Notes: generated by a model from the letters alone, not told the origin. A DNA stretch of 10,321 nucleotides from a virus (IMGVR_UViG_2802429251_000008:1-10321); one strand, 5' to 3'. Shown: positions 2,353-8,666, numbered from the stretch's first letter. Program-made: numbers and translations.

Positions 2353-2575
2353 GAACACCTCCATTATTATTTCCAGTAGTTCGTTTATTCCATCTTTCGA
2401 GTGCTTCTTTTTCACTTCCACTATAGCCGGTTCGGGATTCGCATCCGTTACACTTTGCGCGGTAATATCCTGAAATGGCTTTCACCGTTACTGATGGACA
2501 ACCACAAAATGGACATGGTTTGACTTTTGTGTATCGCACTGGTTTTTCTCCTGTGAGCTTTGTGGCTGCGCTCAT
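2345..2575 (-). CDS. ralR: Lar/RalR-family restriction-alleviation protein (Cys4 zinc-binding)
   Basis: Contains CPFCGC...CNGCES Cys4 motif typical of the Lar family; sits between exo and the small ORF as ralR does in Rac. Start chosen at ATG 2575 (SD GGGGAG 8 nt upstream), overlapping the exo stop as ATGA. Confidence 0.7.
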
Positions 2576-3252
2576 TTCCATTGCTCCCCAAATACAAAAC
2601 CAATTTCAGCCAGTGCCTCGTCCATTTTTTCGATGAATTCTGGCACCATCTCGTCAAAACTCGCCATGTACTTTTCATCCCGCTCAACCACGACATAATG
2701 CAGGCCTTCACGCTTCATACGCGGGTCATAGTTGGCAAAGTACCAGGCATCTTTTTGCGTCACCCACATGCTGTACTGCACCTGGGCCATGTAAGCCGAC
2801 TTTATGGCCTCGAAACCACCGAGCCGGAACTTCATGAAATCCCGGGAGGTGAACGGGCATTTCAGCTCAAGGCCGTTGCCGTCATTGCATAAACCATCGG
2901 GAGAGCAGGCGGTGCGCATAGTCTCGTCACGATAGATGATCGGGGATTCAGTAACATTCACGCCGGAAGTGAACTCAAACAGGGTTCTGGCGTCGTTCTC
3001 GTACTGTTTTCCCCAGGCCAGCGCCTTAGCGTTAACTTCCGGAGCCACACCGGTGCAAACCTCGGCAAGCAGGGTGTGGAAGTAGGACATTTTCATGTCA
3101 GGCCATTTCTTTCCGGAGCGGGGTTTTGCTATCACGTTGTGAACTTCTGAAGCTGTGATGACGCCGAGCCGTAATTTGTGCCACGCATCATCCCCCTGTA
3201 CGATAGCTCTCACGTCGATCCCGGTACGCTGCAGGATAATGTCCGGTGTCAT
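2572..3252 (-). CDS. exo: Lambda exonuclease (Red alpha)
   Basis: 226 aa, near-identical to lambda Exo from memory ([17 protein letters not shown]...GFVFGEQW); start overlaps the bet stop. Confidence 0.95.
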
Positions 3253-4034
3253 ATTGCCACCTTCTGCTCTGCGGCTTTCTGTTTCAGGAATCCAAGAGCT
3301 TTCACTGCTTCGGCCTGTTTCAGTTCTGACAATGCATGAATGTCGCGGCGAAATATCTGGGAACAGAGCGGCAATAAGTCGTCATCCCATGTTTTATCCA
3401 GGGCGATCAGCAGAGTGTTAATCTCCTGCATGGTTTCATCGTTAACCGGAGTGATGTCGCGTTCCGGCTGATGTTCTGCAGTGCATGCGGTATTTTCGAC
3501 AATGCGCTCGGCTTCATCCTTGTCATAGATACCAGCAAATCCGAAGGCCAGACGGGCACACTGAATCATGGCTTTATGCCGTAACATCCGTTTGGGATGC
3601 GACTGCCATGGTCCGATGATTTCTTTGCCTTCTCGGGTTTTGAATGGTTCGCGACGGCACTCATCCATCCACTCGGTAACGCAGATCGGATGATTACGGT
3701 CCTTGCGGTAAATCCGGCATGTACATGATTCATTGTCCTGCTCAAAGTCCATGCCATCAAACTGCTGGTTTTCATTTATGATGCGGGACCAGCCATCAAC
3801 GCCCACCACCGGAACAATGCCGTTCTGCTTATCAGGGAAGGCGTAAATCTCTTTCGTCCACGGATTAAGTCCGTACTGGTTGGCGACGATCAGCAGCGCG
3901 ATGAATTGCGCATCGCTGGCATTACCTTTAAATGCCGTCTGGCGAAGAGTGGCGATCAGTTCCTGCGGGTCGACAGAATCCATGCCGACGCGTTCAGCCA
4001 GCTTCCCGGCCAGTGTTGCAAGTGCTGTACTCAT
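3249..4034 (-). CDS. bet: Lambda Bet single-strand annealing protein (Red beta)
   Basis: 261 aa, near-identical to lambda Bet from memory ([27 protein letters not shown]...). Confidence 0.95.
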
Positions 4035-4039
4035 TCGTT

Positions 4040-4339
4040 TTATACCTCTGAATCAATATCAACCTGGTGACGAGCAATGGTTTCAACCATGTACCGGATG
4101 TGCTCCGCCACACGTTCCTGAAATTCAACATCGTCATCAAATGCGCGACTGATTGCCTGTTTGCTGGCACCGTGGCGTTGCAAATGGTCGATGCAGAGCG
4201 ATTCAAACAGATGCTGGGGCAGACCTTTTTCCAGGTCGTCCGCCAGCGCCGTTTCTTTTTCTTCGCGAACGATTTGCTGGTAGTGGCGTGACCATGCCTG
4301 CTCTTCAATGCGATCAAAAATTGGGCATGTACTCATCAT
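4040..4339 (-). CDS. gam: Gam, RecBCD inhibitor (short GamS-length form)
   Basis: 99 aa; from residue 13 onward matches lambda Gam C-terminal 86 residues (SRHYQQ...HQVDIDSEV). The first 12-15 residues differ from lambda and the upstream frame is occupied by the ORF672 3' end. Confidence 0.9.
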
Positions 4340-6332
4340 CCGTCACCCCAAAATTTTCAAGTTTGTTTGCAATCATCATTGCAATACCCGGAATTAATGG
4401 CGCTGAGGCTATACCCGCAGGATTTGCACATAAACCGTAAACCGCTGCAATCACCACTTGTCTTTTCCAGTCGAGTTTTTCTAATGATGAAGCTGCTGCT
4501 TCGCCAGTTTCATCACTGCAATCGCGATGCGGATCGCTGCCATCGTTCTCCTTGTGCGGATGTTCAGCACCTTCCATTTCCTCCAGACCTTTTTCCTGAT
4601 ATTCATTCTGATTTTCTTCATTAAAGGTTTTCTGATACGTTGCGTCGCCCATCACCGCGCCGCAGTCAGGACAGTTGCCGCCGCCAGCCTGACCGCAGGC
4701 GATGCAAACTTTCTCCGTTTCCTGTTGTTGCACTACTGGCTCAGGCTGTTTCGTTTCTGGCTCGTTTTGTTGCGTATTTGGGTCGTTCTGTTCCGCTTTT
4801 TGGTCGTTATGTTCCGTTTCTGGCTGATTCTGGTACACAGAGTCGCGGGTCTGGATCCCCTTAACCCATTTCGGATCATTCGGGTCGCTAATCCCTTCAA
4901 CAAATTCTCCGCGAGAGGCAGCCAGTAATTTGTCTGCATCGACAGGATTTTTGGGCGGAATGTTTTTCCGGGCTTCATGGAGTTCTGCCCGCAGTTTCTG
5001 ATATTTCGCATCAACAGAATTTACCTGTGACTGAGCATCCAGCGACTGCGTGTCCTGATGATGTTCAGTTGCATCCGGTTCCACTGTTTCAGCCGTTGCC
5101 TGTTCATCTGCCATTGCGCAAGATGGTTGCAGTTTTTCTTCATCATCCTGTTTTTCTTCTTCTGTTACACGCTGCGGCATCGGGGCAGAGGAACGACCGC
5201 AGGCAATATCCACGATTTCTGGATCAGGGTTGGCATGATCAGTTTCAGTCAGTACTTTGTTTAGATATTCAGTGACGTGTGCGGGGATAACCTCGATCCC
5301 AATTGGTGCTTCTTTTACGGACGCAACCACGATGGCGCGGGAATAATCCAGCCCGCCAGGCATGGTGATGAATTTGTCGCGGAAAACAGAAAAGGGCGGT
5401 TTATTTTCAGCGATAATTTCCTCGACACGTTTAGCGTGTGCCGGATGAAGGTTATAAATGTCCACGTCCATTGAACGAGCCAGTACGCCAGTGGCTACGT
5501 CGCGCGCCAGTGACGTCAGATCGTGAACGAAACCTTCGCCGCGATCGGTGAGGTTCCCGCCGCCAGCATTAGCGCCGGAAGCCGTGCGCGTGATGCGTGA
5601 AACACGATTTCCTTTCATCCACTCTTTTGTCAGCAGACCACGATCGGTGTAGTCTGCGTCCAGGTATGCTTCGAAAAAAGCAGTCATCAGCCCCAGGCTT
5701 GAATTGCCTGGATTAGGGAAAACTCTGTCAGTATCACGCACCAGTTTGTGGAGATCGCGAATTTCCAGCGGGTCGAGCAGGCTGGTTTTGTGGGAAACAG
5801 CCAGGGCAGTAACAGCTGGTAGTTCTTCAGCTCGTGCAATGTGTAATGCCTGGAGTTCGTCGCGTGAAACGTGCGTTACCGGTTTTTCGCTGCCGTGTTG
5901 AGCAAGCCAGCGAATGGGCAGCTCCTGACCGGAAATCGGGAGTAGCATATTCTCCTCAATCTCCGTCATGTCTTCGCCATTAACATTGGTATTGTCAGTG
6001 CTGGCTGGTTTGTCCTGCGCAGAGGATGAGGGCGCGATAAATACCATTGTGATGCCATCTTCCCCGCCTTTTTCGTAACGGTTGCAGAATTCCGTATCAA
6101 ATACGCCCTCTGGTGGAAGGTCATCAACAACGGGCAAATTGACGCGAACAGGTTTTTTAAAGTCATCTTCATCGTAGCCAGCATCGTCAATCGCAACAGC
6201 ACCACGGGATATGGCAATGGATAATTTTTTCGCTTCAGCCCAGTAGAAACCGCCTTTAATACCGAGACGTTTTCTTACTTTGTCATTTTTTGCTTCGTAA
6301 TACAGTGGGTAAACTTGTTTATCGGTGCTCAT
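4314..6332 (-). CDS. Large uncharacterised early-operon protein; possible RecE N-terminal-region relative without a nuclease domain
   Basis: 672 aa uninterrupted; SD GAGG upstream of ATG 6332; stop overlaps gam start by about 26 nt. Globular N-terminal region, acidic low-complexity middle, five heptapeptide repeats, CxxC-x9-CxxC zinc ribbon, and a Gly/Ala/Pro-rich hydrophobic C-terminal tail. Occupies the recE slot of Rac. Confidence 0.75.
4736..4850. repeat. Degenerate 21-bp tandem repeats inside ORF672
   Basis: Units such as GGTCGTTCTGTTCCGCTTTTT / GGTCGTTATGTTCCGTTTCTGG on + strand; encode [35 protein letters not shown] on the minus-strand frame. Confidence 0.6.
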
Positions 6333-6781: not shown

Positions 6782-6952
6782 TTAAAGTTCGTGTGCCATC
6801 TGGTCTTTTTCGGCACAACTTTCACTACAATATTTTTTCATTTCCGTCGTTGGGATAACTCCACGCATGAAATGAAGAGGTCTTTTAATACTTTTGCTTT
6901 CTTCAATTTCTTTATTGCAAAGGTGGTAAGCACATTTTATTTTCTTAGTCAT
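6782..6952 (-). CDS. ydaE: YdaE-like small Cys-rich zinc-binding protein
   Basis: 56 aa, below the 60-aa ORF-track cutoff and found by manual translation: [56 protein letters not shown] (CxxxxC...CxxxC). Start overlaps upstream stop as TGATG. Size and order match Rac ydaE. Confidence 0.55.
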   Translation of the reverse strand: MTKKIKCAYHLCNKEIEESKSIKRPLHFMRGVIPTTEMKKYCSESCAEKDQMAHEL

Positions 6953-7173
6953 CACCATGACTCCGCCTTTACAGGTAAACCATCACGACCGAGGAAGACT
7001 TTAATCATGCAGTCAGAAATGCATGTTTTTGTAGTCAGGTTACGAATATAAAGTTTTCGCTTTTTAATATTGTTTGCCGAGGCGATATATGTCCGGCCTT
7101 CATGAAGAACATAATCACCAGGAGTCACACACTGACGTGGTATTTCATCAGTTCCGAAGTGATGTGCAATCAT
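6952..7173 (-). CDS. kilR: KilR-like small protein (candidate FtsZ/cell-division inhibitor)
   Basis: 73 aa from ATG 7173 (SD GGAG 6 nt upstream; the track start at 7185 overlaps the SD). Size and order match Rac kilR. Function inferred from Rac. Confidence 0.55.
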
Positions 7174-7248
7174 AATTATCTCCATTTTTACAAATGAACT
7201 TTGTTGATGCGGTGCCTGGCGCCTCCAGGTGACTGCAACCAGTTAACA

Positions 7249-7277
7249 ATTACAGTCGGCTTTCCCACCCAAACCAA
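7249..7277 (-). promoter_or_regulatory. Candidate sigma70 promoter for kilR-ydaE-racC
   Basis: Minus-strand -35 TTGGTT (7277..7272), 17-bp spacer, -10 TGTAAT (7254..7249); the leader would contain the CCTGG-n5-CCAGG hairpin. Confidence 0.25.
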
Positions 7278-7346
7278 TAAGGACTAACATGACTTTTAAC
7301 TGTGCCGCGTGCGCTTAGCCGCATTCACCGCATCACAAAATTCACT

Positions 7347-7392
7347 TTAAAAAGGGGCGGCAGGGCAGCCACGGAGTAGAACTGATGCCGCC
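7347..7392 (-). terminator. Candidate leftward intrinsic terminator
   Basis: On minus strand: stem GGCGGCA (7392..7386) / TGCCGCC (7362..7356), 23-nt loop, then CC + TTTTT (7353..7349). Long loop lowers confidence. Confidence 0.3.
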
Positions 7393-7516
7393 AAAGACTA
7401 CACATAGCAATGTCGTTATTTACAACCGGAGGCGCACTCCCACCATTTAAATTTAACAGACAAGACCGACTCTTTATGAATACCGGAAATGCACCTTCGT
7501 GTTGTGCGCCTGTCTT

Positions 7517-7544
7517 TTTACCACTTCAGGCTCGGTGGTATACT
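7517..7544 (+). promoter_or_regulatory. Extended -10 promoter for the + strand 64-aa ORF
   Basis: TGgTATACT (7536-7544) with -35-like TTTACC (7517-7522) at 16-bp spacing; ATG at 7579 preceded by TAAGG. Confidence 0.4.
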
Positions 7545-7578
7545 GGAGTTCTCACACAACCAGTAATAAGGTATTCCG

Positions 7579-7773
7579 ATGGATAATAAAGACAAAGCCT
7601 GGCTACTTGCTTTAGCTTTCAGCATCAGATCGCAGCGAGAAACAACTCATCAAGAATTTTTCTCGGAAATCGAGAATGCTGAGAATGAGTTTTTGTCACT
7701 ACTCAATGAACGTGATGCTAAAAAAAGCTCCGATTCACTTAAGGCTTGGGCGAAACTAGGCTCTTCAAAATAA
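7579..7773 (+). CDS. Small hypothetical protein (64 aa), opposite in orientation to neighbours
   Basis: ATG start with SD-like TAAGG, own promoter, two in-frame stops immediately upstream; 3' end overlaps the convergent 72-aa ORF by 35 nt. No recognisable family. Confidence 0.4.
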   Translation: MDNKDKAWLLALAFSIRSQRETTHQEFFSEIENAENEFLSLLNERDAKKSSDSLKAWAKLGSSK

Positions 7774-7957
7774 TTGCTTCTGTAGCGGCATGAACAACTG
7801 TTTTTGCCGCCTCTTCAACTTCCTTGTCTGGACGACCAGCCTTTACTTTTTCTGCAATGACCTCCAGCACAGTTGGAAGAACCTTGCTAATAAGCATGGC
7901 TGCCACATCTTTGCTGCACAATTGACCGTTAATAACAACCAGATCTTCACCAACCAT
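7739..7957 (-). CDS. Small hypothetical protein (72 aa), first gene after the leftward promoter
   Basis: ATG 7957 with SD AAGGGG 7 nt upstream; downstream of a consensus-like promoter. Not Arg-rich, so not an N-type antiterminator. Confidence 0.45.
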   Translation of the reverse strand: MVGEDLVVINGQLCSKDVAAMLISKVLPTVLEVIAEKVKAGRPDKEVEEAAKTVVHAATEAIILKSLVSPKP

Positions 7958-8204: not shown

Positions 8205-8666
8205 CTACTGGTTACGTTTCTTTAGTGCCAGCATGTTCTCGAAGGCTTCCTCGTAGAGCTTGTTTAGTCCACGTAGCTGGTTAAGGAGTTTGGCTTTTTC
8301 TGACGCAGGTAGAATCTCGAAGAGGTTAAGTAACTCAGCCTGTTCTTCATTGACCAGCCTCCATCCTTTGCCTGAAAAGCTATCATCATAAGTATCTGAT
8401 GATCTTACATAATTCATTAAGTCTTTAAGGTCTTCTCGAATGTCCTCTGGTTTTACCTTTAACAGAGCCGCAAATTTTAGCGCAGCGTCGGTATTTACCG
8501 GTATCTTGCCGTTCAGATACTGGCTAACGGTGCCTTGAGATTCGAATCCCAACAACTCAGCCGCCAGCTCTTGAGTCAGCTTCAGCTCTTTTTTTCTTGC
8601 ATTCCATGCGGCTTTTAAATTCTTGCTCGCTTCTGGAGTTGCAATCACTTCGCGTGTTTTTTTCAT
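8205..8666 (-). CDS. racR: XRE-family HTH prophage repressor (RacR-like)
   Basis: 153 aa; N-terminal HTH (LTQELAAELLGFESQGTVSQYLNG); divergent from ydaS-ydaT exactly as racR is in Rac. Confidence 0.8.
   Translation of the reverse strand: MKKTREVIATPEASKNLKAAWNARKKELKLTQELAAELLGFESQGTVSQYLNGKIPVNTDAALKFAALLKVKPEDIREDLKDLMNYVRSSDTYDDSFSGKGWRLVNEEQAELLNLFEILPASEKAKLLNQLRGLNKLYEEAFENMLALKKRNQ

Follow-up and report, generated by a model that had tools for sequence, protein, structure and literature searches.

The window analysed here is a whole stretch of 10,321 nucleotides (nt) of viral DNA (IMGVR_UViG_2802429251_000008:1-10321) from a Rac-like lambdoid Escherichia coli prophage, and the element in question is a gap in its leftward (minus-strand) operon, just upstream of kilR, a gene for an inhibitor of FtsZ and cell division. 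We think it highly probable that this gap is a control region between the immunity side of the prophage and its kil and rec genes, built of three kinds of element that are already known: a small RNA (sRNA) gene of the DicF/KilS family, a structured leader of kilR, and a pair of back-to-back promoters.

The gap is most likely non-coding from 7174 to 7578. Its left edge is set by kilR (6952-7173, minus strand; PHROG 294 'Kil protein for bacterial septation inhibition', E = 7e-38), to which the leader belongs; since kilR most likely starts at its second ATG (7173), as in RefSeq relatives and in the K-12 annotation, the gap begins at 7174. A preliminary description of this DNA had put the edge at 7186, and while the non-coding stretch that it reported proved real, that boundary had to be moved. 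The right edge is an open reading frame (ORF) of 64 residues on the plus strand (7579-7773; PHROG 22868). An ORF listing bore out the statement that neither strand of the gap holds an ORF of 60 residues or more, but the longest is one of 58 residues (7410-7586, plus strand), for which we found no Pfam or PHROG match, and the 37-residue ORF given earlier as the largest starts at an internal ATG of that same frame. Likewise, the gap is GC-rich, as had been said, in relative terms only, with a guanine-plus-cytosine fraction of ~0.50 over 7200-7500 as compared with 0.37–0.42 in the flanking coding DNA.

An sRNA gene of the DicF/KilS family

The sRNA gene lies at 7349-7443 on the minus strand, with a predicted primary transcript of ~95 nt that combines a KilS-type 5' module with a DicF-type 3' hairpin. 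When the window was aligned with K-12 Rac and the Qin dicF locus (alignment A1), the ends of K-12 kilS (1418502 and 1418405) fell at window positions 7443 and 7349, and KilS (b4833) is annotated in K-12 Rac in the matching spacer between kilR and sieB; going by this alignment, KilS of K-12 Rac and the window sRNA are positional orthologues. In K-12, KilS was detected by Hfq RIL-seq (RNA interaction by ligation and sequencing) and verified by northern blot, and the supplementary table of that study puts the start of its transcription at 1418502 and a site of RNase E cleavage at 1418471 (PMC8175672). The promoter region and the first ~48 nt of the sRNA are near-identical between the window and K-12 Rac, with a single G-to-A change.

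The two sRNAs part company in their 3' hairpins. K-12 KilS carries ...CAGUUUUUUUCUUGAAGUUCGGCUGAUGUCCGCCC, whereas the hairpin in the window does not match this KilS type and is of the DicF type instead. Consistent with this, a search with the Rfam DicF model (RF00039) found a DicF-family core at 7355-7406 (minus strand), in which a single-stranded seed precedes a long hairpin with an ftsZ-complementary loop, and this match covered the full model (1-52 of 52) and scored 60.9 bits against a gathering score of 48 (E = 1e-11 to 1e-12). K-12 KilS reached 39.1 bits with the same model and thus stayed under the threshold, because its 3' hairpin differs. Since a KilS-type 5' module is here joined to a DicF-type rather than a KilS-type hairpin, the window sRNA is, as judged from the alignments and model scores, a mosaic of KilS and DicF modules.

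The same hairpin forms the Rho-independent terminator of the sRNA (7349-7392, minus strand), with a GGCGGCA...UGCCGCC stem from 7392 to 7356, the full span of the DicF hairpin in the Rfam structure line, and a U-tract at 7353-7349; a terminator scan independently reported a stem at 7372-7357 followed by a T-run. A minus-strand terminator that had been proposed earlier at 7347-7392 is therefore confirmed and coincides with the DicF hairpin and its U-tract. As in DicF, then, the 3' stem-loop doubles as an intrinsic terminator ending in a U-tract, and the gene stands in a prophage early operon upstream of a gene for a cell-division inhibitor, here kilR. At the other end of the gene, reading the sequence gave a candidate extended -10 element, TGtTAAATT (7450-7458, minus strand), the hexamer of which ends 7 nt upstream of 7443. 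K-12 Rac has the same sequence here and a recorded transcription start at the base equivalent to 7443, and the element is the probable promoter element of the sRNA itself.

DicF is known to pair through its 3' region with the ribosome-binding site of ftsZ and through its 5' end with xylR (PMC5069750). For the hairpin segment of the window sRNA we predicted a duplex with the ftsZ translation start region of -24.8 kcal/mol that covers CGGAGAGAAACUAUG, as compared with -21.1 kcal/mol for the hairpin segment of K-12 DicF and -21.3 kcal/mol for that of K-12 KilS, and 1.3% of shuffles matched the pairing of the window segment. Only the hairpin segment gave a meaningful comparison, the duplex predicted for the whole-length sRNA with ftsZ being indistinguishable from shuffles. 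The ftsZ complementarity appears to be retained, and repression of ftsZ by the window sRNA is predicted from it.

The structured leader of kilR

The stretch that runs from the terminator tail to kilR is homologous to its counterpart in K-12 Rac and to the Qin dicF-dicB spacer (alignment A1). In the window this stretch (7174-7355, minus strand) is both the structured 5' leader of kilR and the spacer that separates it from the sRNA gene, and it matched the full Rfam STnc100 model (RF02076) with 39.7 bits (E = 6e-7). As this is less than the gathering score of 47, the leader is STnc100-like and not a member of STnc100; Qin and K-12 Rac also gave full-length scores below the threshold (34.4 and 28 bits, respectively).

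The read-through RNA from 7443 to 7160 folded with z = -3.2, and the main feature of the fold was a duplex of ~29 bp (G-U pairs counted) joining the terminator tail to the purine-rich sequence at the kilR ribosome-binding site. The 5' arm of this duplex, CCUUUUUAAAGUGAAUUUUGUGAUGCGGUG (7326-7355, minus strand; minimum-energy fold and repeat pairs I1 and I6), includes the terminator tail, and the 3' arm, CACCGCAUCAACAAAGUUCAUUUGUAAAAAUGG (7182-7214, minus strand; minimum-energy fold and repeat search), takes in the first two G of the kilR Shine-Dalgarno sequence GGAG (7183-7180). The 9-bp inverted repeat GATGCGGTG/CACCGCATC to which the preliminary description had drawn attention is exactly where it was placed, at 7206-7214 in the 3' arm and 7326-7334 in the 5' arm, and it turned out to be the inner end of this longer duplex, which the repeat search extended to 28-nt arms at 7187-7214 and 7326-7353. 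Two hairpins accompany the duplex: one of 10 bp, GACUGUAAUU-GUUAACU-GGUUGCAGUC (7231-7257, minus strand; helix 7 of the pair counts given below), and one of 5 bp, CCUGG-AGGCG-CCAGG (helix 8), which also occurs in the Rfam STnc100 consensus. The latter had been recognized before as a CCTGG-n5-CCAGG hairpin, with coordinates one base off; the correct ones are 7215-7229 (minus strand). A kilR promoter suggested at 7249-7277 did not survive, as it fell below the consensus promoter scan and overlaps both a part of the leader that varies among homologues and the conserved hairpin at 7257-7231.

To count pairs we gathered homologous leaders from IMG/VR with a 15-nt pattern and kept 65 distinct ones (alignment A3). 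Downstream genes among the homologues are kilR, dicB and a third small gene, the product of which starts MLNVAIENQ.... Duplex helices 2 and 3 were paired in 93.9% and 99.3% of cells, respectively. Helix 7 (7257→7231) was paired in 99.4% of cells and showed two compensatory pairs (U-A to G-C and G-C to U-A), and helix 8, also paired in 99.4%, showed one (U-A to G-C, in copies of the type found in phage P7). Double changes affected 6 pairs in 21 cells, a count that 0 of 500 shuffles reached, and in controls with slid partners pairing dropped to 35–45% of cells. Many of the one-sided changes were from G-C or A-U to G-U, which is tolerated on minus-strand RNA only. The closing stem and the two 3' hairpins of the STnc100 consensus are kept in the homologues; the central helices of the window fold are unconserved, the central segment being a variable insert. 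Neither an intact ORF in relatives nor repeats lacking covariation, the two outcomes that the preliminary description had set against a structured RNA, was what we observed: pairing-preserving changes occur among the 65 homologues, and the relatives examined are non-coding there.

The pairing probability of the Shine-Dalgarno 5-mer of kilR was 0.46 in the window and 0.49 on average in leaders of the kilR type, versus means of 0.86 in dicB-type and 0.84 in third-gene-type leaders. With the kilR Shine-Dalgarno sequence only half paired, a translational effect on kilR is uncertain. A role for the duplex in processing is suggested by Qin. There, termination, RNase E and RNase III act on dicBF RNA to yield DicF (PMC5069750; PMC10448788), and RNase III is reported to turn read-through dicBF RNA into a 72-nt DicF (PMC5069750). 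The 3' end of the 72-nt form is ~19 nt beyond that of the 53-nt form and lies inside the homologous 5' arm; by homology, we predict that RNase III cleaves the duplex in the window as well.

We also saw a 13-nt complementarity (85%; repeat pair I3) between the 5' hairpin of the sRNA (7423-7435) and the CCUGG hairpin of the leader (7219-7231), and in Qin a similar GUGCGCUUCCGGUUG motif lies near the reported RNase III site that yields a 190-nt DicF. We did not retain the pairing of 7423-7435 with 7219-7231 as a conserved feature, as inspection of the aligned variants found no consistent covariation.

An RprA-like seed

A second resemblance concerns the 5' part of the sRNA. Its nt 23-52 (7392-7421, minus strand) align with nt 51-79 of the host sRNA RprA with 27 of 30 nt identical and one gap, and the local alignment score of 43 compares with a mean of 14 and a maximum of 31 in 3000 dinucleotide shuffles (z = 13); the Rfam RprA model matched the sRNA weakly. 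The K-12 KilS RNase E site (1418471) corresponds to window position 7412 and shares an alignment column with the RNase E-made 5' end of Qin DicF. Processed, active RprA comprises the last 47 nt of RprA (PMC9262595), and its 5' end coincides with the start of the similarity to the sRNA and with the KilS RNase E site. Given this coincidence of the KilS RNase E site, the RprA similarity and the start of processed RprA, the RprA-like stretch probably includes both the point of RNase E cleavage (~7412/7411) and the seed of a processed form. We predict this form to be ~63 nt long (7411→7349), with a seed like that of RprA and a hairpin like that of DicF.

The one RIL-seq partner reported for KilS is yncL (PMC8175672). 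Just past the yncL stop codon we found a region that pairs with the K-12 KilS seed (-21.0 kcal/mol, 5% of shuffles as good) and also with the seed of processed RprA (-20.5 kcal/mol, 0.6% of shuffles as good), and the G-to-A variant in the window seed weakens the yncL pairing (yncL 3' end, L129 17000-17100). This complementarity of KilS and processed RprA to yncL is suggestive only. We tentatively raise the possibility, itself open to considerable doubt, that KilS-type sRNAs of Rac-like prophages are chimeras of an RprA processing site and seed with a DicF-type ftsZ-binding hairpin, the RNase E product of which would act on part of the RprA regulon and on ftsZ, and the terminator tail of which would serve as an anti-Shine-Dalgarno sequence in read-through RNA. 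The one searchable paper that names KilS (PMC8175672) mentions neither its relationship to DicF nor that to RprA.

We further considered the 5' seed as an antitoxin that pairs, in cis or in trans, with the start codon of the gene that follows. In the window, AUGUGUAGUC is able to pair with GAUUGCACAU at the kilR start, and in Qin, GACGUUUGG of DicF is able to pair with CCAAACGUU of dicB (by eye). As a conserved feature this pairing was rejected, because the modules are shuffled among homologues, Qin-type DicF occurring with kilR and the KilS type with the third gene.

The upstream module and back-to-back promoters

Upstream of the sRNA gene, the promoter scan found a plus-strand cassette, TTTACC-16 nt-TGgTATACT (7517-7544; 9/12 matches plus the TG extension), which is 35 nt upstream of the 64-residue ORF at 7579-7773. 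The surrounding module (7500-7562) is conserved at 84–91% in phages SfV and SfII and in Cronobacter, Klebsiella and Salmonella phages, and at least 120 IMG/VR contigs contain its 18-mer core. An STnc100-like leader followed within 110 nt of the module in 55 of 104 contexts, with a DicF core between the two in ~15. Klebsiella phage ST405-OXA48phi1.2 has an unannotated 64-residue ORF on the opposite strand beside the module (L126 2302-2496, minus strand) that resembles the 64-residue ORF of the window, as judged from the translations and not from an alignment score, and in SfV an opposite-strand ORF of 81 residues starts beside the module. Since there is a good extended -10 element and an opposite-strand ORF adjoins it in three phage backgrounds, we read the module as the promoter of a rightward gene, which in K-12 Rac is sieB. 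We had considered the module as a leftward RNA element or a put-like antiterminator, but the opposite-strand ORFs and the extended -10 promoter fit better with a promoter cassette. The upstream part of the gap thus appears to hold two back-to-back promoters, one for the sRNA (minus strand) and one for the 64-residue ORF (plus strand).

Two further observations were made in these phages. The Klebsiella 64-residue ORF is convergent and overlapping with an apparent homologue of a 72-residue ORF of the window. Moreover, the most conserved part of the cassette in E. coli, Shigella, Klebsiella and Cronobacter phages is its 18-bp spacer CCACCGAGCCTGAAGTGG (L125 2501-2545; L126 2501-2572), which is itself an inverted repeat, CCAC-n10-GTGG, and might be an operator or an RNA hairpin.

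How the gap might work

Combining these elements, we propose the following scheme. The opposed promoters in the upstream 130 bp would drive the sRNA and the plus-strand 64-residue ORF, and the sRNA (7443→7349) would be transcribed from its own promoter and ended by its intrinsic terminator, bind Hfq and be cut by RNase E near 7412/7411 to give the ~63-nt form, with its hairpin loop pairing with the ftsZ ribosome-binding site so that FtsZ synthesis is repressed. The terminator would at the same time halt most leftward transcription ahead of the toxic kilR. Transcripts that read through would fold into the STnc100-like leader, in which the ~29-bp duplex links the terminator tail to the kilR Shine-Dalgarno region, and RNase III would cut this duplex and separate the sRNA from the kilR mRNA, a step that probably sets the translation or stability of kilR. 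In K-12, kilR is ordinarily kept silent, and a drop in NusG makes it toxic (PMC5793797); both its silencing and its dependence on NusG are compatible with a termination barrier upstream of the gene.

Alternative explanations

Of the options offered in the preliminary description, a structured RNA and a terminator have held up, the latter as the 3' end of an sRNA gene, and an antiterminator checkpoint and decayed coding sequence have not. That the gap is a recent pseudogene with accidental repeats is scarcely credible: although the 58-residue ORF (7410-7586, plus strand) and many short ORFs exist, the gap ORFs have no family matches, the homologous stretch is non-coding in K-12 Rac, Qin and the RefSeq relatives examined, and the gap matches two RNA families, with substitutions that keep pairing, including G-U changes that are valid only as minus-strand RNA. 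We also judge it quite improbable that an N/nut- or put-like antiterminator is loaded at 7480-7570, so that transcription from pL would pass the terminator on induction. No alternative pairing competed with the terminator stem in our folds, and since we found no alternative hairpin that disrupts the terminator, such a switch is unsupported; HK022 and lambda were absent among the phage matches listed by blastn (15 weaker records lay beyond that list), no Rfam family covered the module, and no N-like gene or ORF was seen. It is true that an intrinsic terminator in the middle of the leftward operon stands ahead of kil and rec genes needed after induction, that K-12 kilR expression responds to NusG levels (PMC5793797), and that the upstream module is highly conserved and can form hairpins in its minus-strand reading, but a plus-strand promoter is the better explanation of this conserved module.

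A different question is whether the leader (7365→7166) is a free-standing, trans-acting sRNA of the STnc100/PasD type and not the cis-acting 5' untranslated region of kilR, which we regard as unlikely. The module precedes unrelated genes (dicB, kilR, the third small gene and, in phage P7, terB), as might be expected of an independent sRNA, yet a short ORF starts right after the leader in 62 of the 65 copies, and the other three are of the P7 type, with terB following in P7. The full-length match is to a model itself built on an sRNA, and STnc100 and PasD are regarded as prophage sRNAs (preprint 10.64898/2026.05.13.724894; PMC12370729); the match, however, is below threshold, there is no terminator between the module and the kilR start, where the 3' arm of the main helix enters the kilR Shine-Dalgarno sequence, and the scan found no promoter directly upstream besides that of the sRNA.

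Our preferred reading, a control region made up of an sRNA gene, a kilR leader and opposed promoters, has its own points to answer. The sRNA alone folds no better than shuffles (z = -0.9), and its promoter has no -35 match and was unlisted by the consensus scan. Expression in the window strain, Hfq dependence and RNase E cleavage of the sRNA are expected from homology, the ftsZ pairing is a prediction that 1–5% of shuffles equal, and the RNase III site of Qin is taken from secondary citations of Faubladier et al. (1990). As for the leader, its STnc100 score is under the Rfam gathering threshold, the covariation is modest, as the 5' arm hardly varies and many of the leaders are close relatives of one another, and the occlusion of the kilR Shine-Dalgarno sequence is partial and far weaker than in dicB-type leaders. 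All of these weigh against the proposed scheme.

Modularity and distribution

Four parts recombine among the homologues: the 5' module of the sRNA, its hairpin, the leader insert and the downstream gene. The 5' module is of KilS or Qin type, and the hairpin is of DicF type, KilS type or others. In several viral contigs (L006, L039, L065, L076 and others; alignment A3) it is the third small gene (MLNVAIENQNGW...), and not kilR or dicB, that follows the leader, and its position suggests that it encodes another toxic or division-related peptide. In the P1-like phage P7 the leader lies directly upstream of terB in the ban operon, with no DicF-type sRNA (L124 2459-2687); the presence of an STnc100-like leader there indicates that the cassette moves between lambdoid and P1-like phages. 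At least 37 complete E. coli genomes, that of an O157:H7 strain among them, carry the exact 111-nt sRNA region with an identity of 99% or above, and 12 of 12 perfect-match records among the matches listed have no feature annotated at the place of the sRNA.

These results bear on prophage biology in several ways. In Qin, FtsZ is hit both by an RNA, DicF, and by a protein, DicB, with a processed leader between the two, and this logic would recur in Rac-type prophages as the sRNA and KilR, with the sRNA seed, the sRNA hairpin, the leader insert and the downstream toxin swapped as separate cassettes. In practical terms, an Rfam scan would name the sRNA in such records. Should the RprA-like seed prove functional, a prophage RNA would here have copied the seed of a host sRNA, and this would provide a concrete handle on how kilR, with its NusG-dependent toxicity (PMC5793797), stays off.

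Prophage setting

The best complete genomes match the window at 96–98% identity over 80–88% of its length. Overlapping genes for the sRNAs SraC/RyeA and SdsR (RyeB) are found at 462-606 (Rfam, 179 and 118 bits), ~130 bp from the integrase ORF (734-1810), and given this short distance the window prophage is inserted at the ryeA/sdsR locus and not at ttcA, the site used by K-12 Rac. In leftward order, a helix-turn-helix repressor-like gene (8205-8666; Pfam HTH_3) comes first, and it is followed by promoter-like sites at ~8092-8023 (promoter scan), the 72-residue ORF (7739-7957), the gap, kilR, ydaE, racC, the recombination genes, and ralR with the RalA antitoxin RNA.

RalA is full-length at 2168-2346 (223.8 bits). 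The RalR/RalA system is probably intact, the type I toxin gene ralR being expected near RalA from homology with a RefSeq relative and K-12 Rac. The recombination module (2572-6332) looks mosaic; in place of the recE-recT pair of K-12 Rac, the best-matching genomes annotate a RecE-family exonuclease (672-residue ORF, 4314-6332), Bet (3249-4034) and a lambda-exonuclease-family protein (2572-3252).

Comparison with known systems

The closest counterpart of the gap as a whole is the dicF locus of Qin. Both are early-left prophage operons in which an sRNA, a conserved leader and a small division inhibitor gene follow one another, and the 3' hairpin and terminator of DicF (RF00039), with its ftsZ-complementary loop, is also present in the window sRNA. 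They differ in the downstream gene, which is dicB in Qin and kilR in the window, and in the 5' seed (UAUGUGUAGUC... in the window against UUUCUGGUGACG... in Qin DicF); because the seeds differ, xylR, the target of the DicF 5' seed (PMC5069750), is not predicted to be shared. A further difference is that the window copy appears to own a promoter, whereas DicF in Qin arises solely by processing of dicBp transcripts (PMC10448788). With K-12 KilS the window sRNA has in common its locus, between kilR and the gene in the sieB position, as well as the promoter, 5' module, terminator tail and leader, the difference being that the 3' hairpin has been replaced in the window by one of DicF type. With RprA it shares the processing site and a single-stranded seed 5' of the terminator-proximal hairpin, but the rpoS-pairing 5' half and the terminator of RprA have no counterpart in the window sRNA, and the latter carries a G-to-A change within the common stretch.

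The leader resembles STnc100/PasD (RF02076) over the whole model, with a long closing helix, a variable centre, a 10-bp hairpin and a CCNGG-AGGCA-CCNGG hairpin; it differs in that one consensus hairpin is unformed in the window owing to non-standard pairs, and in being the leader of kilR and not a demonstrated free sRNA. A parallel of another kind is the N-leader of phage lambda, an early-left leader in which RNase III cuts a long-range duplex that takes in the ribosome-binding region of the gene next downstream. The two leaders have no sequence relationship, and the window has neither a nut site nor an N gene and occludes the Shine-Dalgarno sequence only in part. All components of the gap have described relatives, namely DicF, KilS, STnc100/PasD and the dicBF RNase III site, and what may be new, as far as sequence comparison can tell, is the relation of KilS to DicF, that of KilS to RprA, and a possible anti-Shine-Dalgarno role of the terminator tail.

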